From Bacteroidales bacterium (GTDB lineage Bacteria; Bacteroidota; Bacteroidia; Bacteroidales; UBA12077), in the NCBI GenBank assembly GCA_028282785.1, contig JANQHE010000071.1, positions 4,423 through 68,422 of the forward strand: 64,000 nt of DNA, in the 5' to 3' direction. Positions within the stretch are counted from its first letter, which is position 1. Each line of letters opens with the position of its first letter. A program made the position numbers and the translations under genes. This document shows, piece by piece, positions 1 through 64,000 of the stretch. Under the pieces are notes generated by a model. The model had not been told where the DNA came from. It saw only the letters and a list, made by a program, of their open reading frames with translations, and did not search any database.

Positions 1-147
1 CGCACGCTTCAAATGCCGGAACCGTTGTGTGCAAGTGTAAAGAACCGTTCGACACATTGAAACGATAAAAAAAACACAAAAAATGGATTGATTGGATTGG
101 TTCTTTGTTGATAGTGCGGTGCAGTTTGAGGGGAATTTATTTTGTTT

Positions 148-240
148 TTCTCCCCCGCGCAAAGATAAAGAAACCCCACCGCACAAAACAGCACATTTGC
201 AAAAGAGCTGTTTTTTTTGCCAACGTATCACTGCTTTTTT
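148..240 (+). repeat. GC-enriched intergenic repeat module, copy A
   Basis: CTCCCCCGCGC-AAAGATAAAGA(161-171)-AACCCCACCGCACAAAACA(174-190)...TTTGCAAAAGAGC(196-208). AAAGATAAAGA recurs at 62340-62350. CCCCACCNNACAAAA(A)CA recurs at 2407-2423. TTGCCAAAGAGC recurs at 2347-2358. Confidence 0.5.
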
Positions 241-298
241 GTAAATTAAGTGCAACCATTTTAGGTTTTTGCATCACTAAAAGAAGAATGATTAATAA

Positions 299-1264
299 AT
301 GGACTCGAACAAAGATTTTTGGATAGACACGTATAATCGAAATATTAAAAAGCTGATTGGAGTTTGCTACAGATATGTTACCGACCAAAAAATTGCGGAA
401 GACCTTGCTCATGATTCTTTTTTGACTGCAATGAAAAAGTCTGGAACATTTAAAGGTAAGGGACATTTCGATGCATGGCTAAGAAAGATTACTGTAAATA
501 CCGCATTGCAATATTTACGGGAGATAAAATCAATACAAGATAGCCAACAAGAGCTTTTGCAACGTGAACTGATTAATAACGATGAAAAAATGTTTCAGAA
601 GTATGATTTTACAACACAGGAATTACTGGATGCAATAAACAAATTGCCAGAACATCATCGTCAGGTATTTAACCTTTATGTTATTGACGGATTTACACAT
701 AAACAGATTGCCGAAAAACTTGACATCAGCATCGGAACCTCTAAATCTCATTTGGCAAGAGCTAAAAAGAAATTAAAACAAATTCTTAATAAAAAGCAGG
801 AATCAAAACGGTCGTTTATTTTACTCCTTTTCCCTTGTGGGTTTGGAAGAATAAACAGATTATACAAAAAGGAATTTGAAAATTACGAAATATCACCGCA
901 AAACACTTCATTCTTAAAAACAATTGATTGGGCTGAGGCTAAACCACCACGGTTCACATTGTATTTAAGCTTTATTAAAGCGATTGTGGCAATTGGAATT
1001 ATTTTAATAATAACAGTGATAGTAATTATTAAAACCAATACTAAACCCATTGATTTAAAAAGTAATCCCGACAATCAGGAAATTATTGATACAACAACAA
1101 TAAAAGCCAATTCAATTTCAATTCAAGAAACTACTGATTCAGTAATGCAAACAAAACCATTACAAAAATCAAATCCTGTTATTGTAAAAAAGAAAAGGAT
1201 AACCCATAAAAAAGTAGTTGTTCGTGATACCTTAACCATTTTAGATACGACCAATATTGAGTAA
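299..1264 (+). CDS. ECF-type sigma-70 factor with fused C-terminal transmembrane/extracytoplasmic extension
   Basis: 321-aa ORF. Region 2-like DLAHDSFLTAMKK...FDAWLRKITVNTAL. Region 4 HTH QVFNLYVIDGFTHKQIAEKLDISIGTSKSHLARAKKKL. These are followed by the hydrophobic helix IVAIGIILIITVIVII and a ~85-aa polar tail. Confidence 0.75.
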   Translation: MDSNKDFWIDTYNRNIKKLIGVCYRYVTDQKIAEDLAHDSFLTAMKKSGTFKGKGHFDAWLRKITVNTALQYLREIKSIQDSQQELLQRELINNDEKMFQKYDFTTQELLDAINKLPEHHRQVFNLYVIDGFTHKQIAEKLDISIGTSKSHLARAKKKLKQILNKKQESKRSFILLLFPCGFGRINRLYKKEFENYEISPQNTSFLKTIDWAEAKPPRFTLYLSFIKAIVAIGIILIITVIVIIKTNTKPIDLKSNPDNQEIIDTTTIKANSISIQETTDSVMQTKPLQKSNPVIVKKKRITHKKVVVRDTLTILDTTNIE

Positions 1265-2288
1265 AGTCAGGCACATATTATTAATTCTATTTTGGATTTG
1301 TTTCTTTTTCTATGCAAATGCACAAACCGATACAATTTATGTGTATGAAGATTTAGTTGTTTATGATACTGTTGTTGTGTACGACACAGTATTCATAAAA
1401 CCTGATATTGATAATGTTTTGCCGTTAAAACTTAAACCAATAAGCATTTTACAACTTGATACGATTAACCATCAAGCCAATTTATTGTTAATTTCTGACC
1501 AACAAACTGCCACCTTTCCGATAAATCACATCATACTAGATGAAAACTTTAGTAAAAACATTAAAAATTCAGAAAGTATGAAAAAGTTAAGTTTCTTCGG
1601 AGTTGTATTTTTTGCCTTTCAAGCAATGGTTTTGGCTCAAACCAATTATGAAATTTCAATTGGCTCAGGTATCTGGTGGGAAAACGGTAATCTCGAATAT
1701 GTTGATAAACCTTATTCATCGTTATTAAATGCTGGTTTTTTTGCAAAAAGGAATTCTATAGGTAAAAGCTTTGGATTAAAAACAGGCGTTGAATACAGCT
1801 ACCTTTTAGGTAGCAACGGTTATAAATTTGATGGAACAATTGGGATTTGGCATTCAGAAGACGGTAGCGAATTTGAAGATATAAACAGCAACTATGGTGC
1901 AGGACAGCATAATATTTCAATTCCCGTTTTAATCTACTGGAACAGGTACAAAGTTCAACCATTTTTCGGATTAAATTATAATTACCTTGTAACAGGAACG
2001 CAAACATCTTATTATGACTATATTGAAGTAGGTATTCAAAAAACAGGAAAGCACAAATATATTTCCGATTCACATAACATTGGACTTAACCTTGGCATAG
2101 GCTTTAAGATTAGTGAGCTGTTTTCTATTAATATGGAGTATAAACATAACCTGACCTCCGATTTTGGTCAATCTATATCAAACGAAGGTAGCGATACTGG
2201 CAGTACCGTATTAGGCAGTAGTTATAATCTTAAAAATGCACAGGCAAAACTGTCAATAGTTTATTCACTTGGTAAAAAGAAAAATTGA
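1257..2288 (+). CDS. Putative outer-membrane beta-barrel (porin-family-like) protein; possible internal start at 1578
   Basis: The C-terminal ~235 aa have alternating aromatic/glycine-rich beta-strand character and end in ...AKLSIVYSLGKKKN. There are two signal-peptide-like segments (aa 1-23 and aa 108-128, MKKLSFFGVVFFAFQAMVLAQ). The ORF overlaps the sigma gene by 8 nt. Confidence 0.5.
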   Translation: MSKVRHILLILFWICFFFYANAQTDTIYVYEDLVVYDTVVVYDTVFIKPDIDNVLPLKLKPISILQLDTINHQANLLLISDQQTATFPINHIILDENFSKNIKNSESMKKLSFFGVVFFAFQAMVLAQTNYEISIGSGIWWENGNLEYVDKPYSSLLNAGFFAKRNSIGKSFGLKTGVEYSYLLGSNGYKFDGTIGIWHSEDGSEFEDINSNYGAGQHNISIPVLIYWNRYKVQPFFGLNYNYLVTGTQTSYYDYIEVGIQKTGKHKYISDSHNIGLNLGIGFKISELFSINMEYKHNLTSDFGQSISNEGSDTGSTVLGSSYNLKNAQAKLSIVYSLGKKKN

Positions 2289-2290
2289 TA

Positions 2291-2423
2291 GGCTAACCCC
2301 GTTTGTAGGCACATTGGCAAGTCGCGCGTGCCAAGCTAACCAAAACTTGCCAAAGAGCTAACAAAGCCAGCTCTAAGTGCCGCCTATAATAACGGTTTGG
2401 GGATTTCCCCACCTACAAAAACA
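2291..2423 (+). repeat. GC-enriched intergenic repeat module, copy B
   Basis: GGCTAACCCC(2291-2300)...TTGGCA-N9-TGCCAA hairpin...TAACCAAAACTTGCCAAA(2337-2354; near-identical at 58827-58843)...TATAATAACGGTTT(2385-2397)...CCCCACCTACAAAAACA(2407-2423). Confidence 0.55.
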
Positions 2424-2598
2424 AAATAAATTCGGACTCCGTTGCAAGGTCAGTGCGAATTGATAAGATAAAAGATTAGATTTATAAAAAATTGAAATAG
2501 ATTACCTTTGAACAATAACAACAGCACACAACAAGCGTTTATAAGTAATGTGGGGAAAGTGCTAAATTTGAACAACAAAACATTTAATAAATGCAGTA

Positions 2599-2658
2599 GC
2601 GGTTTGATAGGTTGGAACTTTGAAATCCCGCACTACTCATGCCGCAAAACCGTTATAA
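2599..2658 (+). repeat. Bracketed element GCGGTTTGAT...AAAACCGTTATAA (copy B2)
   Basis: GCGGTTTGAT at 2599-2608 and AAAACCGTTATAA at 2646-2658. The same two brackets occur at 3936-3945 and 4019-4032. GCGGTTT can pair with AAACCGT (one G-U). Confidence 0.45.
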
Positions 2659-2739
2659 AACATAAATTCTTGAGAAAACTTGTAACCTTTTGGCGGTTGG
2701 CTTATCTAAACCACAATAATCATTAAAGTTATAAATGCT

Positions 2740-3066
2740 ATGATACTTATTCTTCCAATTGTTGCAATTTTAGTAGTCGGACTGATCCTTTATTACATTA
2801 GAACAAAAAATCAAGAAAGATTGAAGTTAATCGAAAAAGGGATCAATCCGGACGGACAAAGTATTACTGAATTTCAAAAACAATCCAGTTTGAAAAATGC
2901 AGTACTTTTTATTTCATTATCATTAGGACTATTTTTAGGTCATATTTTAACCATCAATTTCCGGCAACTTGATAATTTTATAACTTATTTGACCATGTTT
3001 TTATTATTTGGTGGTATAGGCTCATTGATAAACTATTACCAAATGAAAAATTGGAATTCTAATTAA
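2740..3066 (+). CDS. Small multi-pass membrane protein (DUF6249-like, tentative)
   Basis: 108 aa. N-terminal TM helix, then an RLKLIEKGINP amphipathic linker, then two more hydrophobic helices. The stop abuts the start of the downstream ECF sigma gene. Confidence 0.45.
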   Translation: MILILPIVAILVVGLILYYIRTKNQERLKLIEKGINPDGQSITEFQKQSSLKNAVLFISLSLGLFLGHILTINFRQLDNFITYLTMFLLFGGIGSLINYYQMKNWNSN

Positions 3067-3603
3067 ATGAATGGTTCTAAAATACTAAAAAAGGCTATCG
3101 CCGGAGATAAAAATGCACTTTCTGTTCTTGTTGACAAATATAAAGACATTGCCTTTAATCTTGCAATAAGTATTGTCAGGGACGAAGAAGATGCAAAAGA
3201 TATTACACAAGATAGCTTTTTGAAAGTTTTAGAGAATATTGAGAGCTTCAGAAATGAGTCAAAATTTTCAACCTGGTTATACAGAATAGTATATAATTTA
3301 TCAATACAATTTATTCGAAACAAAAAGAAAATGGACTCATTAGAAAATGTTTCTCATATTCTGACTGAAACATCTTCGGATACATTGGAAACTCATGAGA
3401 AAAACCAAATAATAAAAATTTCTCTTAATATACTTGATGGGAATGAAAGACTGATTGTTACTTTATTTTATCTTGGAGAAAAATCCATAAAAGAAATCAA
3501 AGAAATAACATCTCTTTCACTTTCAAACATCAAAGTTATTTTATATAGGTCAAGAAAGAAAATGACCAAAAATCTTGAAAAGTTGAATTATGAAAGAGTT
3601 TGA
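3067..3603 (+). CDS. ECF-type RNA polymerase sigma-70 factor
   Basis: 178 aa. Region 2 EEDAKDITQDSFLKVLENIESF...FSTWLYRIVYNLSI. Region 4 LIVTLFYLGEKSIKEIKEITSLSLSNIKVILYRSRKKM. Confidence 0.85.
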   Translation: MNGSKILKKAIAGDKNALSVLVDKYKDIAFNLAISIVRDEEDAKDITQDSFLKVLENIESFRNESKFSTWLYRIVYNLSIQFIRNKKKMDSLENVSHILTETSSDTLETHEKNQIIKISLNILDGNERLIVTLFYLGEKSIKEIKEITSLSLSNIKVILYRSRKKMTKNLEKLNYERV

Positions 3604-3904
3604 TAATGAAATAAAAAGTCATGTTAAGGCAAACATGAGTAAAATTAAAGATGAAAACTTTACTTCAAAAGTAGTTACAAGGCATTTGCTGACCAGAAAG
3701 AAAAAAGTAAAAAAGGTTTACTTCAATTTTGAAGCATTAATATTCTGGATTATTGCTGTTTTGATAGGTATAGCATTGTTGATAATGAAATTAATAAACG
3801 AGACAGTATTTTTTGAAATTCAGGTTAAGCATTGTTTAATTTTAATTTCACTGACATTGACGGCTTTGATATATAAATGGGTGGAAAAAATGTATAGTGT
3901 ATAA
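3590..3904 (+). CDS. Putative membrane anti-sigma factor / small membrane protein
   Basis: 104 aa. Overlaps the sigma gene by 14 nt. Two hydrophobic helices (ALIFWIIAVLIGIALLIM, LILISLTLTALIY). The call rests on position only. Confidence 0.45.
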   Translation: MKEFDNEIKSHVKANMSKIKDENFTSKVVTRHLLTRKKKVKKVYFNFEALIFWIIAVLIGIALLIMKLINETVFFEIQVKHCLILISLTLTALIYKWVEKMYSV

Positions 3905-3935
3905 AATTGCATCATTAAGCAAAAGAGTTGTCGTT

Positions 3936-4032
3936 GCGGTTTGATTGCTATTTGTTATATTTGTTTCTCCCGATAGTTATCGGGACAGGGGGTGGTGATC
4001 CCGCCTCGCTTCATACCCAAAAACCGTTATAA
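3936..4032 (+). repeat. Bracketed element GCGGTTTGAT...AAAAACCGTTATAA (copy C)
   Basis: Same brackets as 2599-2658. The interior contains hairpins CCCGAT/ATCGGG and GGTGG/CCGCC. It is locally GC-rich within AT-rich DNA. Confidence 0.45.
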
Positions 4033-4087
4033 GTAATTAGACATTAGCTAATGCATAACAAAGAGATTTTATATAAATAACATTTTT

Positions 4088-28207: not shown

Positions 28208-28217
28208 TAAAACAAAA

Positions 28218-28245
28218 AGAGAAGCTTTAATAGCTTCTCTTTTTT
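28218..28245. terminator. Bidirectional terminator hairpin (pyrD / tRNA-Lys copy 1)
   Basis: AGAGAAGCT-TTAAT-AGCTTCTCT flanked by an A-run and a T-run. Confidence 0.7.
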
Positions 28246-28248
28246 ATG

Positions 28249-28321
28249 TGACCCAACAGGGGCTCGAACCCTGGACCCCATCCTTAAAAGGGATGTGCTC
28301 TACCAACTGAGCTATTGAGTC
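28249..28321 (-). tRNA. tRNA-Lys (anticodon UUU), copy 1
   Basis: 73-nt cloverleaf on the minus strand: GACTCAA-TA-GCTC-AGTTGGTA-GAGC-A-CATCC-CTTTTAA-GGATG-GGGTC-CAGGG-TTCGAGC-CCCTG-TTGGGTC-A. No encoded CCA. Confidence 0.9.
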
Positions 28322-28469
28322 ATTCAATTTGCGAATGCAAAAGTAGTATCTTATTATATAAATCCAAATTTTTTCCTAAAAAATAATTAAAAATACATTA
28401 ATATCTAAAAAACAATTTAAGAAGTGTTGAATAATGGTATGTAAAAGAGTAACTTATAGAAAACAAAAA

Positions 28470-28496
28470 AGAGAAGCTATTAAAGCTTCTCTTTTT
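28470..28496 (-). terminator. Terminator hairpin downstream of tRNA-Lys copy 2
   Basis: AGAGAAGCT-ATTAA-AGCTTCTCT. This is a duplicate of the 28218 hairpin with a changed loop. Confidence 0.6.
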
Positions 28497-28499
28497 ATG

Positions 28500-28572
28500 T
28501 GACCCAACAGGGGCTCGAACCCTGGACCCCATCCTTAAAAGGGATGTGCTCTACCAGCTGAGCTATTGAGTC
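28500..28572 (-). tRNA. tRNA-Lys (anticodon UUU), copy 2
   Basis: Identical to copy 1 except for one D-loop base (AGCTGGTA vs AGTTGGTA). Confidence 0.9.
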
Positions 28573-28709
28573 AAACGGATTGCAAAAATAAAATCTTTTT
28601 TTCAAAATCAAAAGAAATCAAAAAAAAATGTAATAAATTATATTAAAAAATATTGATCTATCGTTATAACAATTTGTAAATTTCAAGTGACACAACACTT
28701 TATTGATCT

Positions 28710-58755: not shown

Positions 58756-58864
58756 GTTATTAAGTTTACTTTTTTAATGTCACCCGATGACCTGTTTACC
58801 AAAGGGCAGACACGGAAACTTAAAAGTAACCAAAATTGCCAAACCTGCAAAATAACCGGTATGC
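58756..58864 (+). repeat. GC-enriched intergenic repeat module, copy D
   Basis: GTTATTAAG(58756-58764)...TGTCACCC(58778-58785)...TAACCAAAATTGCCAAA(58827-58843)...CAAAATAACCGGTATGC(58848-58864). Confidence 0.55.
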
Positions 58865-59016
58865 TTTACCTATTGGAAAAGTAATATTAGCTTTAGAAAT
58901 AGTAAATACCTAAAAGGATATAATTTGAATTAATTTTAAAACATTAACACATTATCGGTGTTTCCTTTACACTATTTGTTCATAAAATATTTTTCGAAAG
59001 TTATTTTTAATGGAAA

Positions 59017-60558
59017 ATGGCAAAAATAAAGTATACTTCTGAAGAACGTTGGACACTCATAGCAACCATTTTGGCATCAAGTCTTGTGTTTATTGATGGT
59101 ACTGCCTTGAATATTGCTTTGCCCGCTTTACAGGTTGATTTGGGTTTATCTGGTGCACAACTTATGTGGATTGTAAATTCGTATGCTTTATTTTTATCTG
59201 CACTATTGTTATTGGGTGGGGCCATGGGAGATCGGTATGGCAGAAACAAAATTTTTGGTATTGGCTTATTTATATTTATGGTTGCATCGCTGGTGTGCGG
59301 AATCTCCCAAAACTCTATACAACTTATTAGTGCCAGAGCTTTCCAGGGTGTGGGAGGAGCTTTGCTAACTCCGGGGAGTTTATCTATTATTACGGCAAGA
59401 TTTTCTTCAAACAAAGTGGGTAGTGCCATTGGTTTGTGGTCGACCTTCAGTGCCTTAACAGCCATAATCGGTCCTGTGTTGGGAGGGTGGCTTGCCGAAT
59501 TGGGTTTGTGGCGCGTAATATTCTTTATTAATATACCTTTTTCAATATTTGTTCTTTGGGTAATTTTTAATCGCGTACAGGAAAGTAAAAACTCCGAAGT
59601 GGTTAAACTTGATTACCTGGGTGCGTTCCTTGCAACTATCGGTTTGGCTGGTATTACATACGGATTTATTGAATCCTCAAACCGTGGATTCAACGATATG
59701 ATAATCGTTGCTTCATTAGTTATAGGAGGAGCAGGATCCATAGGATTTTTATTATCGCAACATTATGGAAAAAAACCTATGATGCCATTGAGGTTATTTA
59801 AATCGGTGGATTTTAGTATTACCAATACAGGAACCTTATTTATATACGGAGCTTTAAGTGCTACTTTGTTCTTTTTACCTTTAAATCTTGTTCAAGTGCA
59901 GGGATATACCGAAAGTCAGGTTGGGTTAGCCATTTTACCTACCATTGTATTAATAACCATATTATCAACTATTTCGGGAAGGTTGTCGGATAAATTTGGT
60001 GCAAGGTTGTTTTTAACTTTTGGCCCGTTAATAACGGGTTTTGCTTTTCTTTTATATGGTTTTCAAGGATTAACCAATGGGCCATCGGTATATTGGACAA
60101 GCTTTTTTATTCCAAGTGCTTTATTGGGGCTAGGCATGGGATTAACGGTTGCTCCGCTTACCACAACAGTAATGAAATCGGTTTCAAAAAACAATAGTGG
60201 CGTTGCGTCAGGTGTAAATAATACAGTTTCGCGCATGTCAGGGGTACTTTCCGTTGCATTAATGGGAGCTATGGTTATGTATTATTTTAAAATTCATTTA
60301 ATTACACAGGCGCAAGAAATAAATGTATCTTCAGAAATTATTGAAGGCTTAAAAAACGATGCGATCAATCTTGGAGCAACCAGGCCGCCAGAAAATACTC
60401 CGGCAAACCTGATAAATGGATTGAATTTGGTCATTAAAAGCTCTTTTATCAGATCGTTTAACAGTGTGGCGTATATTTCAGCCCTGGCAGCCTGGATAAC
60501 TGCTATAATGTGTTTTACACTTTTGAAAAAGCATAAAGTAAATGTTCAGGAAAATTGA
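59017..60558 (+). CDS. MFS transporter, DHA2 (14-TMS EmrB/QacA-like) drug:H+ antiporter family
   Basis: 513 aa with ~14 TM helices. Motif A-like GGAMGDRYGRNKIF and motif C-like GPVLGGWL. Confidence 0.88.
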   Translation: MAKIKYTSEERWTLIATILASSLVFIDGTALNIALPALQVDLGLSGAQLMWIVNSYALFLSALLLLGGAMGDRYGRNKIFGIGLFIFMVASLVCGISQNSIQLISARAFQGVGGALLTPGSLSIITARFSSNKVGSAIGLWSTFSALTAIIGPVLGGWLAELGLWRVIFFINIPFSIFVLWVIFNRVQESKNSEVVKLDYLGAFLATIGLAGITYGFIESSNRGFNDMIIVASLVIGGAGSIGFLLSQHYGKKPMMPLRLFKSVDFSITNTGTLFIYGALSATLFFLPLNLVQVQGYTESQVGLAILPTIVLITILSTISGRLSDKFGARLFLTFGPLITGFAFLLYGFQGLTNGPSVYWTSFFIPSALLGLGMGLTVAPLTTTVMKSVSKNNSGVASGVNNTVSRMSGVLSVALMGAMVMYYFKIHLITQAQEINVSSEIIEGLKNDAINLGATRPPENTPANLINGLNLVIKSSFIRSFNSVAYISALAAWITAIMCFTLLKKHKVNVQEN

Positions 60559-60643
60559 TGTTAAAGGGGCAGGATTACCGGAAATACTGAATTTTTAGCG
60601 GCTTATTTATAACTGCTCATATTTTATGACGCAATTGTTAATT

Positions 60644-61051
60644 CTAATTTTCAGAATTCCTATATATTACAACAGAACCTACTAACATATCATGAATAGC
60701 TTTTCTTTTTTTATTCCCAGAGACTGTCAATAGTGATAACCAACCTAAAAATGCTTTAACAATAAATCGAATAATTGCTAAAGGTAAAAGTATATTTTTC
60801 TCTTCATTACGATGTCTTCTTACTCTTATATTCATAATCATATGACCTATAGTACCACCAAAGAAACTTGTAAAAATTGGATCGTAAAGCAAAAATATAA
60901 ATACGAATGCAATTTTCTTTGCTACATCCGGCACATTTTCAAATAGCGAAAAAATATACGTTACTAAAACTAACTCGCTAATTAAAATAATAGAATCAAT
61001 CACAACTGCTTTTACTCTATCAGATACATGTGGGTAATTTTTCTCAGTCAT
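60644..61051 (-). CDS. RDD-family membrane protein
   Basis: 135 aa. VSDRVKAVVIDSIIL N-terminus, three TM helices, GGTIGHMIMNIRV. Confidence 0.65.
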   Translation of the reverse strand: MTEKNYPHVSDRVKAVVIDSIILISELVLVTYIFSLFENVPDVAKKIAFVFIFLLYDPIFTSFFGGTIGHMIMNIRVRRHRNEEKNILLPLAIIRFIVKAFLGWLSLLTVSGNKKRKAIHDMLVGSVVIYRNSEN

Positions 61052-61069
61052 TATTCTATTTTTAAATAT

Positions 61070-61693
61070 TTATTTTTCTACAACAGTTGTTAATTTATCA
61101 GATTGAAACATTACTGCTGGAGATATTACTTTTTCGTCCAAAGGAATAGTGTCACCATAACGTTTTGCCATTATTTCTTTTACAATTTCATTCTCTAAGT
61201 CAAATTCTCTCAAAGATTGAAGTTTACCAATTTCAATTCCTACAGCTTCCTTGTATATTTTCCAAACCAGTTCAGAACAGTAGATTTTTTCATTTGACCA
61301 TTCGAAATAGATATCATAATTCTTCCCAATAAACGTTTCTCCAATAGACTTCATTTTCATTAAGTTCTCGCTGGTCAAATATTTTTTAGACTCTTTCAAT
61401 CGTTTAACCACAAAGTGTTTCTTTTCGCCGCGATTTATCCATTCATGAAGCGGTGTCAATTTCACAGGTTGAACAGCTTCATAAACCATGATGTTGTCAT
61501 TCTCAACATATATAATTCCCATATGACTATATTTCGAATGTGTAGCAAGTTGTATCGCTTTACTTTGTTGCGATTTTGAGGTTTGGAAAATAATATCTCC
61601 ACTTTTCAATTTTTGTTCAAAATTGTCAGTAGAACAACCAAGAAAAATAAATAGTATTAATGAAATTGCCTTTACAGAAATGTTTTGTCTCAT
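61070..61693 (-). CDS. YiiX-like permuted papain/NlpC-P60 family lipoprotein
   Basis: 207 aa. Lipobox IFLGCS. GDIIFQTS...YSHMGIIY (His) and the later YCSELVWKIY (Cys) give the circularly permuted catalytic order. Confidence 0.65.
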   Translation of the reverse strand: MRQNISVKAISLILFIFLGCSTDNFEQKLKSGDIIFQTSKSQQSKAIQLATHSKYSHMGIIYVENDNIMVYEAVQPVKLTPLHEWINRGEKKHFVVKRLKESKKYLTSENLMKMKSIGETFIGKNYDIYFEWSNEKIYCSELVWKIYKEAVGIEIGKLQSLREFDLENEIVKEIMAKRYGDTIPLDEKVISPAVMFQSDKLTTVVEK

Positions 61694-61737
61694 GCGTTTT
61701 TTCTCAGAATTAATATGTATTACACATTGTATGCAAA

Positions 61738-62256
61738 TTATTCAGTCTCGTAATAAAATTTCACTGCGTCAAAAATGTCTCTCAGATGCTCTCTGGTAAT
61801 TCTATGAATGTCAAGTTTAGACAAATTAAGAATTATGTAATTTAAATTCTCTTCAGAATAAGTTTTTCCTTTAGTTTCTACAAATTCATCCTGAATTTCT
61901 GTGATTATCTCGATGTCATTTCGAGTTACAGTCTCCTTAGTTTTGGCTAAAATATTATTATAAATTGTATTAGTCCTTTCATCATAATCATTCTCTGTTA
62001 CTAGTTTCGTGATGTCTTCTCCACCGGAAAAGTTGATATGAAGAGCTTCTAAAGAATTTCTCAAGCCTCTAAACGGCTTGGTAATACTAAAACCCCACCA
62101 ACCAAATAAAATTGTCAAAATGGAATAAGGTACTCCTGGTAAAATTAAATTTTTCCCACTGTGAATTTCATAAACTTTAGAATTTGAATAAACTCTGTAT
62201 GGGCCTAAGTTAATAGAGACCTTATAAAACCTTTGTAAAACTTCCTGCTCTTTCAT
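61738..62256 (-). CDS. Hypothetical membrane-associated protein
   Basis: 172 aa. One hydrophobic segment with ILFGWWGF. No recognisable family. Confidence 0.4.
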   Translation of the reverse strand: MKEQEVLQRFYKVSINLGPYRVYSNSKVYEIHSGKNLILPGVPYSILTILFGWWGFSITKPFRGLRNSLEALHINFSGGEDITKLVTENDYDERTNTIYNNILAKTKETVTRNDIEIITEIQDEFVETKGKTYSEENLNYIILNLSKLDIHRITREHLRDIFDAVKFYYETE

Positions 62257-62293
62257 TAGAGTAAAATTTATATATTATGTGTAATGTTCTTCT

Positions 62294-62431
62294 GTTATTA
62301 AGCCTTGTAGGAGAAGCGTTTCAGTGTCACCCGTAATCGAAAGATAAAGATAACTAAAACCTTGCATGCTGGCAAGCAGGTTGTCAAAATACCACTGAAA
62401 CCTGTATGTTTTATGACTTGCTGTTAGCCAC
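62294..62431 (+). repeat. GC-enriched intergenic repeat module, copy E
   Basis: GTTATTAAG(62294-62302)-TTGTAGGAGA(62305-62314)-TGTCACCC(62325-62332)-AAAGATAAAGA(62340-62350)-TAACTAAAACCTTGC...GTCAAAATACC...GTTAGCCAC(62423-62431). Confidence 0.55.
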
Positions 62432-62441
62432 TGTTTATTTT

Positions 62442-63869
62442 TTATTCTACATTAATGTAATACTGCAAAACTGCTCTATTTGTATGAGTTTCTTTTTCAA
62501 GAATTAATATTCCATACTTTATAAATTTTTTAAAGCGAACTTCTTTCTGCCCGAAAATAAATTCCTGTTTATTTTCTTCAAAATTCTCATCTCTATCAAA
62601 TTGTACCAAATTGTCAATTCTTTGAAATAAATTTTCCAGTTCTGTAAAATAAACAAAGTCTGAATAATTTTTAAATACACGACGATATGTTAAACCTACA
62701 ACCTTATCTTTCTCATACTTCTGATGAATAACATAGTTGAAAAAATTAAAATATAATATTGGAAGTTCAATAGCAATCATTTCTGATTCAAATTCTTCAG
62801 ATTTCTCATATTTTTCAACTACTTTATTAAAATCGATATACTGAAAAGCATTTTCAACTATTTCATCTGTTGAATTAGGAGGAAGATGAATCATATCGTC
62901 AAGTACTTCTCTAAATTCTTCAAACGAAAGAATTTTTGTAGGTATTTTAAATTCAGAATATAAAACTTTCGATTTGATTCTTAAATTCTTGTCATTTACT
63001 ACGAAATAATCACAATGAGCGCCATAAAAAGCATGCTCGGAATCTACAACAATATTTTTAGCAGTATCAGTTGGCTTTTTAAGCTTATCAGATTTAAAAC
63101 CAATTATGTCCAAGAATAAATAGGCTGTTTTAAAGAATTCAAATCGGGTTGTAGGTTCTCGATATTTAAATGCTGTTTGAACATAGTCAATAAAAGTAAG
63201 ATTTGTCTCAAACGAATTTAAATACTCATTTATGTTTTCAACAACTTCCTTTTCATTCCAATTTCCTGAATTCGCTTCAATTTTAAACCCTTTTTCATTC
63301 AGTGTTTTTCTAAACTCTTTATAAAATGGACGACTTCCAATGAAATTTTCTGAAAACAATCCAATATCTGAAAAGAATTCTAACATATTAGAATTTGATT
63401 TTAAGTTTGGAAACATTTGATTTAGGACTTCTCTATTTTCATTATTAATTTCAATAGGCACTATTTGATTCTTGAATAATGTCTTCAACATTTTACCATA
63501 CTTTCCTAAACCAAGTTCTTTTCCAAATTCATCTAATTGGTCAAATAGACTATTAATGTCATATTCTATCGGCTCATTATGATTATCTTTAATATCCTTA
63601 AAGTACTGTGATGGTTTGCAAAACAAACACATTGTTCTTTTTTTTTCCCAGCGGAGTAAATGCTTTTCAGAAATCTCATCAAGTGTATTTAAATCATTCC
63701 AGAACATTTTATTTTCAGGGCTAAAGCTTTTCATTAAATCGTGGAAATGCGCTGGTGAGTATGGAAAGAGTAGTTTTGTCTTATGACTTAGAATTTTTTG
63801 TTTGAAATTTAAGAATTCATCTTTTTTTAAATTACTAAAAACATTCCAGTCAAGGTAGATTCTAATCAT
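62442..63869 (-). CDS. Hypothetical protein with tentative split PIN-like signature
   Basis: ~475 aa (ATG at 63869; the track start at 63875 is TTG). N-terminal IYLDWNVFSNL and the later VVDSEHAFYGAHCDYFVVNDKNL resemble the first and last acidic motifs of PIN-like nucleases, separated by a long insert. Bracketed by a 9-bp inverted repeat. Confidence 0.35.
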   Translation of the reverse strand: MIRIYLDWNVFSNLKKDEFLNFKQKILSHKTKLLFPYSPAHFHDLMKSFSPENKMFWNDLNTLDEISEKHLLRWEKKRTMCLFCKPSQYFKDIKDNHNEPIEYDINSLFDQLDEFGKELGLGKYGKMLKTLFKNQIVPIEINNENREVLNQMFPNLKSNSNMLEFFSDIGLFSENFIGSRPFYKEFRKTLNEKGFKIEANSGNWNEKEVVENINEYLNSFETNLTFIDYVQTAFKYREPTTRFEFFKTAYLFLDIIGFKSDKLKKPTDTAKNIVVDSEHAFYGAHCDYFVVNDKNLRIKSKVLYSEFKIPTKILSFEEFREVLDDMIHLPPNSTDEIVENAFQYIDFNKVVEKYEKSEEFESEMIAIELPILYFNFFNYVIHQKYEKDKVVGLTYRRVFKNYSDFVYFTELENLFQRIDNLVQFDRDENFEENKQEFIFGQKEVRFKKFIKYGILILEKETHTNRAVLQYYINVE

Positions 63870-63893
63870 AAGCAATTTTCAAAAAAATATATT

Positions 63894-64000
63894 GTGGCTA
63901 ACCTGATTTACTGGACGTGCGGGAGTTTCTCGTGATTCACTGTCACCCATTGCAAAAACCAACACGAATATACATTTTTGTCATCAAACTGCCAAAAACC
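63894..64000 (+). repeat. GC-enriched intergenic repeat module, copy F (truncated by window end)
   Basis: GTGGCTAAC(63894-63902)...TGTCACCC(63941-63948)...CTGCCAAAAACC at the window end. Confidence 0.5.
63914..63939 (-). promoter_or_regulatory. ECF-type promoter candidate TGAATC-N16-CGTC
   Basis: Minus-strand reading GGGTGACAGTGAATC-acgagaaactcccgca-CGTC. The -10-like CGTC lies ~40 nt upstream of the ORF start. Copy E has the homologous GGGTGACACTGAAAC at the same distance from the 62256 start. Confidence 0.35.

Follow-up and report, generated by a model that had tools for sequence, protein, structure and literature searches.

Sedentary chromosomal integrons, of which the Vibrio cholerae superintegron with its ~125-nt VCR attC sites is an example, and the CALINs of the IntegronFinder classification, which comprise at least two sites within a few kb with no integrase nearby, are among the described systems closest to the locus analyzed here. 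Recombinase sites also bracket genes in Xer systems (XerA, XerC/XerD, and the pdif modules of Acinetobacter plasmids); the dif-like sites of the Xer-dependent pdif modules are 28-bp duplexes in alternating orientation. Integron surveys rely on the IntI-specific domain together with a canonical attC model, and inverted integrases of the Treponema type carry that domain. In these "inverted-integrase" chromosomal integrons, the integrase is co-oriented with the cassette array (PMC3607928). The I2-helix insertion is treated as necessary for attC recombination, and in the accepted account integron recombination evolved through acquisition of this helix (PMC7790495, PMC4792948). Surveys have found almost no integrons in Bacteroidota (PMC9024848).

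The window, meaning the whole 64-kb stretch of Bacteroidales DNA that was analyzed, carries near its right end a minus-strand gene, ORF477, which the original prediction had described as boxed by a perfect 9-bp inverted repeat. With a probability of roughly 85%, we interpret ORF477 as an integron-type cassette within a CALIN-like remnant of an integron-like system whose recombinase is not nearby.

The box was confirmed by an exact-repeat search: the window contains exactly two copies of GTTAGCCAC, one at 62423-62431 (+) and one at 63894-63902 (−), which lie 10 nt beyond the stop codon and 24 nt ahead of the ATG of ORF477, respectively. About 0.15 matches would be expected per window, and two or more copies were obtained in 0 of 100 shuffles. 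The left cassette boundary (63894..63902, minus strand), located by this search and by the cassette-rule table (row C40 68324/66739), reads G|TTAGCCAC on the coding strand; the G at 63902 is the final base of the upstream attC-like site F, and TTAGCCAC constitutes cassette bases 1-8, such that GTTAGCCAC is the crossover core of site F together with the first cassette bases. At the opposite end, an R''-type inverse core with its extension (GTGGCTAAC; 62423..62431, minus strand) starts the cassette's own site E and is complementary to the first bases of the ORF477 cassette. As derived from the alignments, the complete cassette (62285..63901, minus strand, ~1617 bp) runs from TTAGCCAC through a 5' leader, the gene, and site E to the crossover-G position, which is an A here. 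The inverted repeat is thus the boundary signature of a gene cassette, real and not due to chance. The insertion of a gene between two modules, offered by the original prediction as an alternative, is in our view the same thing as a cassette. A 1497-nt contig of a second metagenome terminates within E and F.

The "GC-rich modules" noted beside the ORF are real repeats, and they can be defined better as members of a family of ~130-nt hairpins. An nhmmer search found 51 copies of this family, including E and F, clustered on several contigs of the genome, and their alignment demonstrated conserved ends, with TAAC at one and GGACC-GTTA at the other. Compared with the integron consensus (inverse core RYYYAAC, core GTTRRRY), AAC and GTT(A) are near-invariant at the site ends, and positions 5-7 often break the R/Y rule (GTTAGCC, GTTATAA); the cores match GTTRRRY in part only. 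Pairs were counted on a structure taken from one member and scored against slid-partner controls: 79% of cells were paired versus 33-38% with a slid partner, 16 of 24 stem pairs had changed on both sides, and stem covariation was 0.305 versus 0.06-0.10. Arm-to-arm duplex energies supported the pairing overall, with the site's own partner not always the best one. RNAalifold on the MAFFT alignment of the sites returned no consensus structure, and a column-pair dynamic program on the site alignment gave a noisy one.

Site F (63892..64000, minus strand; nhmmer E=7e-22; covariance model 54.8 bits) lies upstream of the ORF477 cassette and is clipped by the window end. The whole site extends to ~64026 on the contig, where its covariance-model match (L015 315-449) scored 56.8 bits; it has lost 4 nt from the conserved GGACC motif beside the crossover. 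Site E (62275..62433, minus strand; nhmmer E=1.2e-8; covariance model 33.9 bits, E=7e-6), which belongs to the ORF477 cassette, contains an internal 22-nt insertion, and its distal crossover core is degenerate, reading AGAAC-ATTA and not GGACC-GTTA. Fold z-scores of −0.7 to −0.8 for E and −0.2 to −0.5 for F were no better than those of shuffled sequences, whereas a well-preserved member of the family folded at z −3.2/−4.0. The earlier failure to find a convincing attC fold therefore holds for E and F, which are decayed, and does not extend to the family. Since both sites have lost the most conserved motif and fold poorly, the ORF477 cassette is probably immobile now and fixed in place.

The ORF477 cluster is a small decayed remnant of three to four attC-like sites. 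E, F, and G occupy 62275-64842 in window numbering, at least two sites within a few kb with no integrase nearby, and contig C40, on which the window lies, has no tyrosine recombinase match. Next after site E comes a gene of 172 aa with no family match (61738..62256, minus strand), followed, with no more sites, by genes for a Peptidase_C92 and an RDD protein; a weak, partial, degenerate site in the same array direction was detected at 58771..58867 (minus strand; nhmmer E=0.52, searching contig C40 only). A second cluster in the opposite orientation lies at the left end of the window, where an attC-like site occupies 3895..4036 (plus strand; covariance model 57 bits, E=3e-11). The GGCTAAC that had been reported directly after the stop of a plus-strand gene is indeed present at 2291-2297, behind the gene at 1578-2288, and is the R''-type start of a site (2291..2662, plus strand; covariance model 2522-2662, 37.7 bits) whose two halves are separated by extra DNA and whose R' half (…AAACC-GTTATAAA), at ~2640-2662, is clear. 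Positions 1..34 (plus strand) are the 3' end of a well-preserved site spanning the window start (contig C40:4316-4456, L014 4316-4456; 97.5 bits).

The proposal that the box obeys the rule for integron cassettes gained statistical support over the arrays of the genome, in which the flanking modules are covarying attC-like hairpins. The seven variable nucleotides after GTTA matched the R'' extension of the next site at 4.09/7 positions, versus 2.5/7 for same-site or random pairs, a level reached in 0 of 20000 permutations (p<5e-5, genome-wide). About 15 of 22 adjacent site pairs obey the rule and about one-third break it; ORF477 obeys it over 8 bases, most other cassettes are flanked by equivalent complementary ends of differing sequence, and in a more distant lineage the rule holds in both pairs (2/2).

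The statement that no integrase is present is true of the window and its contig, but does not apply to the genome, which has an array-linked recombinase, not a canonical IntI, on contig C53. This 364-aa Xer/IntI-like tyrosine recombinase (C53 54755-55849) and a conserved attI-like junction are followed by 12 co-oriented sites, and the arrays carry cargo of the kind usual in chromosomal integrons, including an HNH gene and a MazF/PemK pair. Against the NCBIfam integron-integrase model TIGR02249 (cut-off 265 bits), the protein scored 193 bits, the best value in the genome and among the best matches of the protein itself, with model positions 179-242 unmatched; no frame of the assembly, which is 100% complete by marker genes, attains 265 bits. 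Alignment to VchIntIA (2a3v) covered query residues 97-272 and 290-359 and skipped IntI 186-247, to which the ~45 residues missing from the recombinase correspond. It thus lacks the IntI-specific additional domain (the I2 helix around patch III), and because this insertion is absent it is not a canonical IntI; the system is therefore integron-like and not an integron in the strict sense. The closest solved relatives of the recombinase are archaeal XerA (4a8e, 5hxy), ahead of VchIntIA, and it carries an additional N-terminal region of ~90 aa.

The attI-like junction (..TATAAACAAG|TTA) lies 100-170 nt past the recombinase stop codon in seven genomes, 3' and not 5' of the gene, which is transcribed towards the array. 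Similarity between genomes at the junction stops at GTT, and two contigs end there. The recombinase and array layout recurs in G015, G008, and G024, with recombinases 41-62% identical, and is present in a more distant lineage too. In six genomes (G008, G161, G163, G158, G071, and G116), a site was among the matches listed downstream of the recombinase on the same strand and contig. In a sample of 151 genomes from the order, the site model matched 52, and a single complete genome holds at least 21 sites over 130 kb. Site-positive and recombinase-positive genomes overlap (28/23/23/76; odds ratio 4.0, p=1.2e-4), an imperfect co-occurrence in which 23 genomes have sites only and 23 the recombinase only. 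An integron-like system whose recombinase lacks the IntI-defining domain is common in this Bacteroidales order. Our literature search, of incomplete coverage, found no published description of it.

In the mechanism that we propose, each cassette carries one or two genes between a short leader and an imperfect hairpin site of ~130 nt, which opens with ..TAAC and closes with GGACC-G|TTA. The Xer/IntI-related recombinase of C53 would cut at G|TT, and excision would yield a circle; with a cut at this position, the first bases of the excised cassette (TTAGCCAC) would pair with the opening bases of the cassette's site (GTGGCTAA). The TTAGCCAC/GTGGCTAA pairing is the 9-bp inverted repeat on which the original prediction was based. 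We infer catalysis by the C53-type recombinase, the exact cut position, and the choice of substrate, folded single strands versus duplex DNA. As the recombinase has no I2-helix insertion, the system would use a different mechanism or, less likely, this protein is not the enzyme.

Comparison with relatives placed the ORF477 family in a second array. In the genome G011, a homolog with 50% identity sits in another array, where the boundary is GTTAGCCGT/ACGGCTAAC; the homolog's cassette begins G|TTAGCCGT, and the site trailing it matches E best (score 52 versus 21-30). Both ORF477-family members with full context examined sit in arrays of the 130-nt repeat family, and no copies of the unit outside attC-like contexts with target-site duplications were seen. 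Across 37 genomes of the genus, just two carry the gene, and another assembly with the exact ORF477 protein has an identical context. We saw neither a recombination product nor an empty site nor a circular form: four metagenome runs yielded no joints, just contig breaks within E and F, and the flanking 760-aa gene was absent (E<=1e-30) from five same-genus genomes with the closest recombinases. Within the genus, a core gene shows only 45-48% identity, and gene order is too poorly conserved between close relatives to allow empty sites to be compared.

Like sedentary chromosomal integrons, the system strings promoter-poor cassettes into long one-directional arrays, which can reach at least 100 kb. 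Its imperfect hairpin sites (~130 nt, with AAC/GTT inverse cores) are typical of the species, and it shares with those integrons a putative G|TT crossover with the cassette's first bases complementing its own site, toxin-antitoxin and defence-like cargo, and an attI-like junction that adjoins a tyrosine recombinase gene. It differs from them in that the recombinase lacks the I2-helix insertion and has the extra ~90-aa N-terminal region, in that transcription of its gene runs towards the array and the attI-like site lies past the gene's 3' end, and in that the sites have an unpaired GGACC spacer, conserved and strongly asymmetric, and conform to GTTRRRY only partly. As a short, partly degraded cluster on a contig with no recombinase, E, F, and G resemble CALINs; unlike in CALINs, the system from which they derive is not an integron with IntI. 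Co-orientation of the recombinase gene with the array is shared with the inverted-integrase integrons of Treponema, whereas the IntI-specific domain is absent from the recombinase here. Recombinase sites that bracket genes recall the Xer systems, yet the 130-nt hairpins, one-directional arrays, and integron-type cassette rule set the system apart from pdif modules.

It is very unlikely that the modules are non-mobile intergenic repeats of a REP/BIME-like, terminator, or regulatory kind, whose shared ends would produce the inverted repeat. Their intergenic position directly past stop codons, their capacity to form hairpins, and the seemingly inert state of E and F would be compatible with such an origin, but the variable bases co-vary across the gene and not within one module, the modules are constantly linked to one recombinase family and a conserved junction ending at GTT, the same gene recurs with the same boundary in another array, and Rfam contained no match for the modules. 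The copies sit in one-directional clusters after genes, and not, as expected of REP or MITE elements, as dispersed copies with target-site duplications or with a RAYT or transposase. A canonical integron with a true IntI, its array transferred or its intI missing from the assembly, would share the cassette rule and the AAC/GTT cores, and the 193-bit match places the NCBIfam integron-integrase model among the best for the C53 recombinase. This explanation is nevertheless highly improbable, given that no frame in the assembly reaches the 265-bit cut-off, that the array-linked recombinase lacks the ~45 residues of VchIntIA 186-247, that the sites are 130 nt long with a family-specific GGACC spacer, and that the system occurs natively in many genera of the order.

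A single gene flanked by a perfect inverted repeat could also describe a small transposon- or MITE-like unit, ORF477 with 9-bp terminal repeats, set between two modules. Both a transposase and a target-site duplication are absent at ORF477, however, each repeat arm is the ordinary end of one of two family members, and most other cassettes have equivalent complementary ends of different sequence; we regard such a unit as extremely unlikely. Short repeats are common in AT-rich DNA, but a chance match is refuted by the expectation of 0.15 copies per window, by the 0 of 100 shuffles with two copies, and by recurrence of the same rule in about 15/22 adjacent site pairs. The cassette interpretation, by comparison, accounts for the GC-rich modules at both ends of the window and makes ORF477 and its neighbours exchangeable cargo, not core genes.

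On balance, we lean slightly towards a broader view: that Bacteroidales, and probably the wider Bacteroidota, have an integron of their own, with an attI-like site, 130-nt hairpins, arrays that reach at least 130 kb, and a recombinase that never had or has lost the I2 helix, and that ORF477 represents a new split PIN-like, defence-type cassette family. If so, the Bacteroidales recombinase without the I2 helix would be an ancestral form or an independent invention, a natural counter-example to the I2-helix account of integron evolution, and surveys would have missed the accessory-gene reservoir of a major phylum of marine and gut habitats.

The cassette gene itself (62442..63869, minus strand) belongs to a conserved family without a characterized member. 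The minus-strand ORF spans 62442..63875 with a TTG start and 477 aa; homolog alignments begin at the ATG at 63869, giving 475 aa with the N-terminus MIRIY. Its earlier description as an orphan was wrong: one search returned at least 218 homologs at E<=1e-3, and another 1464 cluster representatives. Asp is invariant at D7, D44, D276, and D293 in the homolog alignment. As in PIN-domain nucleases (VapC-type toxins, PIN_3), the N-terminal strand ends in an invariant Asp (IYLDWN), a late block (D..EH....A.CD.FV..DK) is in register with the last PIN motifs, and strands and helices alternate in the structure model; unlike in those nucleases, a helical insertion of ~200 residues splits the domain and a C-terminal domain of 150 aa is added. 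The split PIN-like signature proposed earlier agrees with a language-model and structure look-up, in which the nearest Atlas cluster had PIN clusters as structural neighbours (TM 0.68-0.76), but was not confirmed by other searches. Pfam gave no match for the whole protein or its parts, NCBIfam and PADLOC yielded nothing significant, and neither a PDB sequence-profile search nor Foldseek against the PDB and viral libraries produced a significant match; hhalign against the PIN_3 alignment reached E=0.083 over only 11 columns, and the PIN structure 1o4w ranked 47th in the PDB Foldseek search (E=1.2, non-significant). The modelled product is plausibly a PIN-like nuclease that depends on metal and carries a large helical insertion as well as an added beta-rich C-terminal domain, and a role in defence or as a toxin is a tentative guess. 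A homolog with 84% identity lies on a metagenome contig of 3.1 kb (L057); it is not flanked by the site family and keeps a GTTAGAC core ahead of its leader.

The 64-kb window contains just two copies of the 9-bp sequence GTTAGCCAC, at 62423-62431 (+) and 63894-63902 (-), against an expectation of ~0.15 copies per window, and none of 100 shuffles gave two. Both copies enclose the minus-strand ORF 62442..63875 (ORF477), one arm lying 10 nt past its stop and the other 24 nt ahead of the ATG at 63869, which bears out the boxing and spacing described in the original prediction. A further GGCTAAC was likewise found as predicted, at 2291-2297, immediately after a stop codon. Homolog alignments start at the ATG at 63869, and the product more likely has 475 than 477 aa.

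We then characterized the repeat family to which the flanking modules belong. Iterated nhmmer searches of the 5.5-Mb source assembly (the window is its contig C40:4423-68422), seeded with the module on the ORF's right-hand side and run to convergence, retrieved 51 copies of a ~130-nt element, clustered on several contigs. In gene direction, the element starts with ..(T)ATAAC and finishes with ..GGACC-GTTA.., and a long imperfect stem joins the two ends. When 26 copies were aligned with MAFFT without structural information, the stem that we specified was 79% paired, versus 33–38% when the partner columns were slid; changes occurred on both sides in 16 of 24 stem pairs, with a covariation score of 0.305 versus 0.06–0.10. 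A well-preserved copy folded end to end as single-stranded DNA (z -3.2 for the top and -4.0 for the bottom strand), leaving GGACC unpaired and facing one to three bases, which resembles the unpaired central spacer of attC sites. The loop of several sites (C40:683-859, C53:59326-59486, C76:159798-160048, C37:6175-6324) carries an extra 30–120-nt insert of common sequence (..CGACTACGGCTCATGAAGTCGCTACGCTCAG..), which looks like a small secondary element targeting the hairpin.

In integrons, crossover falls between the G and TT of the core; the bases after GTT therefore belong to the next cassette and are complementary to that cassette's own inverse core. The reverse complement of the extension of R'', the inverse core at the start of the next array site, was matched against the seven variable bases that follow GTTA in each site. 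The next-site match was 4.09/7, versus 2.5/7 both for the two ends of one site and for all-against-all pairs, and 0 of 20000 partner permutations attained the observed mean. Successive cassettes on contig C53 are surrounded by the complementary runs GTTATAAGGC / GCCTTATAAC, GTTATAGGGC / GCCCTATAAC and GTTACACAC / GTGTGTAAC. The window's GTTAGCCAC / GTGGCTAAC combines the end of site F with the cassette's first eight bases and the start of site E, and is therefore the boundary signature of a single cassette, window 62285-63901 (-).

The two flanking sites, E (62275-62433) and F (63892 to ~64026), are accompanied by site G (~64706-64842, outside the window) and weaker remnants at ~65532-65596 and 58771-58867. 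The motif that the family conserves best is damaged in both E and F: four bases of GGACC are missing from F, and E has AGAAC-ATTA in place of GGACC-GTTA, plus a 22-nt insertion. They fold no better than shuffled sequence, which is why the original prediction saw no convincing attC fold. This state suggests that the ORF477 cassette is now fixed.

Several comparisons bear on past movement. Of 37 genomes of the genus, only 2 carry the gene family. The second copy, in G011, is 50% identical and lies in a different array with different neighbours (boundary GTTAGCCGT / ACGGCTAAC). The best match to site E is the site behind this copy (score 52, versus 21–30 for other pairings), which argues that the trailing site travels with its gene, as it does in integrons. 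Rarity, the G011 copy and its trailing site provide evidence that the cassette once moved as a unit. A second coral metagenome (run X4, L059:1468-2961) contains a 99%-identical cassette body, corresponding to window 62412-63905, on a 1497-nt contig that ends inside sites E and F. X4 also contains the upstream neighbour, and the genes downstream of E had no match there at ≥85% identity; as a sign of movement this contig is suggestive only, because repeats break contigs and a gap in coverage is no proof. In another metagenome contig, an 84%-identical homolog is preceded by a ~50-nt hairpin element (L057:470-560) with ends CATAAC and GTTAGAC, which fits the canonical GTTRRRY core and is not the 130-nt site; the gene may also move with a site of another, shorter kind.

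No frame in the source genome attained the NCBIfam integron-integrase cut-off; the best match was a 364-aa tyrosine recombinase (C53:54755-55849), behind which 12 sites run to the contig end on the same strand and in a single orientation, each directly behind one or two ORFs. Among the cargo are an HNH protein, an RlaP nucleotidyltransferase, and a MazF/PemK toxin preceded by a small partner. Many cassettes in this array are two-gene pairs of toxin–antitoxin size (C53:56661-57220 and several others; 81+107, 81+100, 81+99 and 82+114 aa), one of them being the confirmed MazF/PemK toxin and its small partner.

The recombinase has SAM-like and catalytic domains and ~90 additional N-terminal residues. 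Models for archaeal XerA, integron integrase and XerD gave the recombinase about equal scores, each below the model's cut-off; of solved proteins, XerA proteins are closest to it and VchIntIA comes next. Its alignment with VchIntIA skips IntI residues 186-247, the IntI-specific insertion that defines the IntI family (PMC9668308, PMC7790495); judged by this insertion, it is not an IntI. The system shows the cassette rule and hairpin sites of integrons and fails on their IntI integrase; agreement of its cores with the attC consensus is partial, and its attI-like junction is a candidate attI site. It works like a sedentary chromosomal integron, and the ORF477 locus resembles a CALIN, an attC cluster without integron integrase. 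For Bacteroidetes, the IntegronFinder 2.0 paper reports In0 elements alone, joined later by a single complete integron, in Salinibacter (PMC9024848); our full-text literature search found no account of a Bacteroidota cassette system whose recombinase lacks the insertion. Taken together, the predicted integron-cassette reading is in substance supported, with two corrections: the system is a non-IntI, integron-like variant, and the ORF477 copy is a decayed remnant.

Recombinase orthologs in the genus are 59–75% identical and often lie 100–180 nt from a contig end. On long contigs of G015, G008 (a complete genome from the genus) and G024, same-family arrays follow the recombinase gene on the same strand, with the G008 and G024 recombinases just 41% identical. 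Downstream of the stop codon, seven genomes have the junction ..TATAAACAAG|TTA.. in common; similarity ends at GTT, sequences diverge beyond, and two assemblies break exactly there. By this pattern, the junction behaves like a putative attI site. Five drafts (L022 G004, L024 G018, L026 G007, L023 G005, L027 G023) stop 107–181 nt past the recombinase stop codon, two of them exactly at ..AAC(A/T)AGTTA(T); the attI-like junction seems to be a point at which assemblies tend to stop.

A covariance model built from the source-genome sites was applied to 151 genomes drawn evenly from the order, and matched in 52 genomes (51 of 148 genera). The recombinase (E≤1e-55) was also present in 52. Excluding the source genome, the overlap was 28 / 23 / 23 / 76 (both, sites only, recombinase only, neither; odds ratio 4.0; one-sided Fisher p=1.2e-4, related genomes not being independent). 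For six genera, the sites listed include one that shares contig and strand with the recombinase and lies downstream of it. In G008, the model placed at least 21 sites at 1,401,732-1,531,348, all on the recombinase's strand; 21 is the number of candidates scored, and the true number is probably higher. This array extends ~130 kb behind the recombinase gene (C1:1398572-1531348), a scale matching the Vibrio superintegron. At L063, a distant recombinase homolog (45% identity) precedes 130-nt sites that form a separate sequence family, with ATAAC/GTTA ends and CAAAAC replacing GGACC; the cassette rule held in 2/2 adjacent pairs. Just upstream of this homolog, L063:9151-9987 contains a 171-aa ORF with a perfect 75-nt direct repeat and 36-nt inverted repeats (94% complementary) on either side, possibly a segment that can invert or has been duplicated.

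Contrary to what had been proposed, the ORF477 protein is not an orphan: we retrieved 218 homologs (470–485 aa, 40–50% identity, mostly Bacteroidota) and 1464 cluster representatives at E≤1e-3, some without the last 150 residues. It had no match by sequence in Pfam, NCBIfam, PADLOC or PDB. The confident AlphaFold model (pLDDT 89) has an alternating strand/helix core (residues 1–50 and ~260–330), a helical insertion between these and a beta-rich C-terminal domain. Invariant D7, D44, D276 and D293 and a D..EH....A.CD.FV..DK block follow the order of PIN motifs, the block being in register with the PIN_3 alignment end over 11 columns only (hhalign, E=0.083). Foldseek with the model gave nothing significant; a protein atlas lists PIN-type features, with PIN clusters as structural neighbours of the nearest cluster (TM 0.68–0.76). 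We give a PIN-like nuclease roughly even odds, and a defence or toxin role is tentative, at a little below even.

At the scale of the window, two same-family site clusters lie at its ends in opposite orientation, ~55 kb apart (1-4036 (+) versus 58771-64000 and beyond (-)), separated by core genes (tRNAs, Kdo operon). Over 46 nt, site E is 93% identical to the inverted site at C40:4323-4368; the arrangement would fit an old inversion, one of whose ends fell within an array. Two tRNA genes, 28249-28321 and 28500-28572 (-), lie in a 251-nt tandem duplication (window 28209-28621), and behind each of them the same palindromic, terminator-like hairpin of 32 nt recurs.
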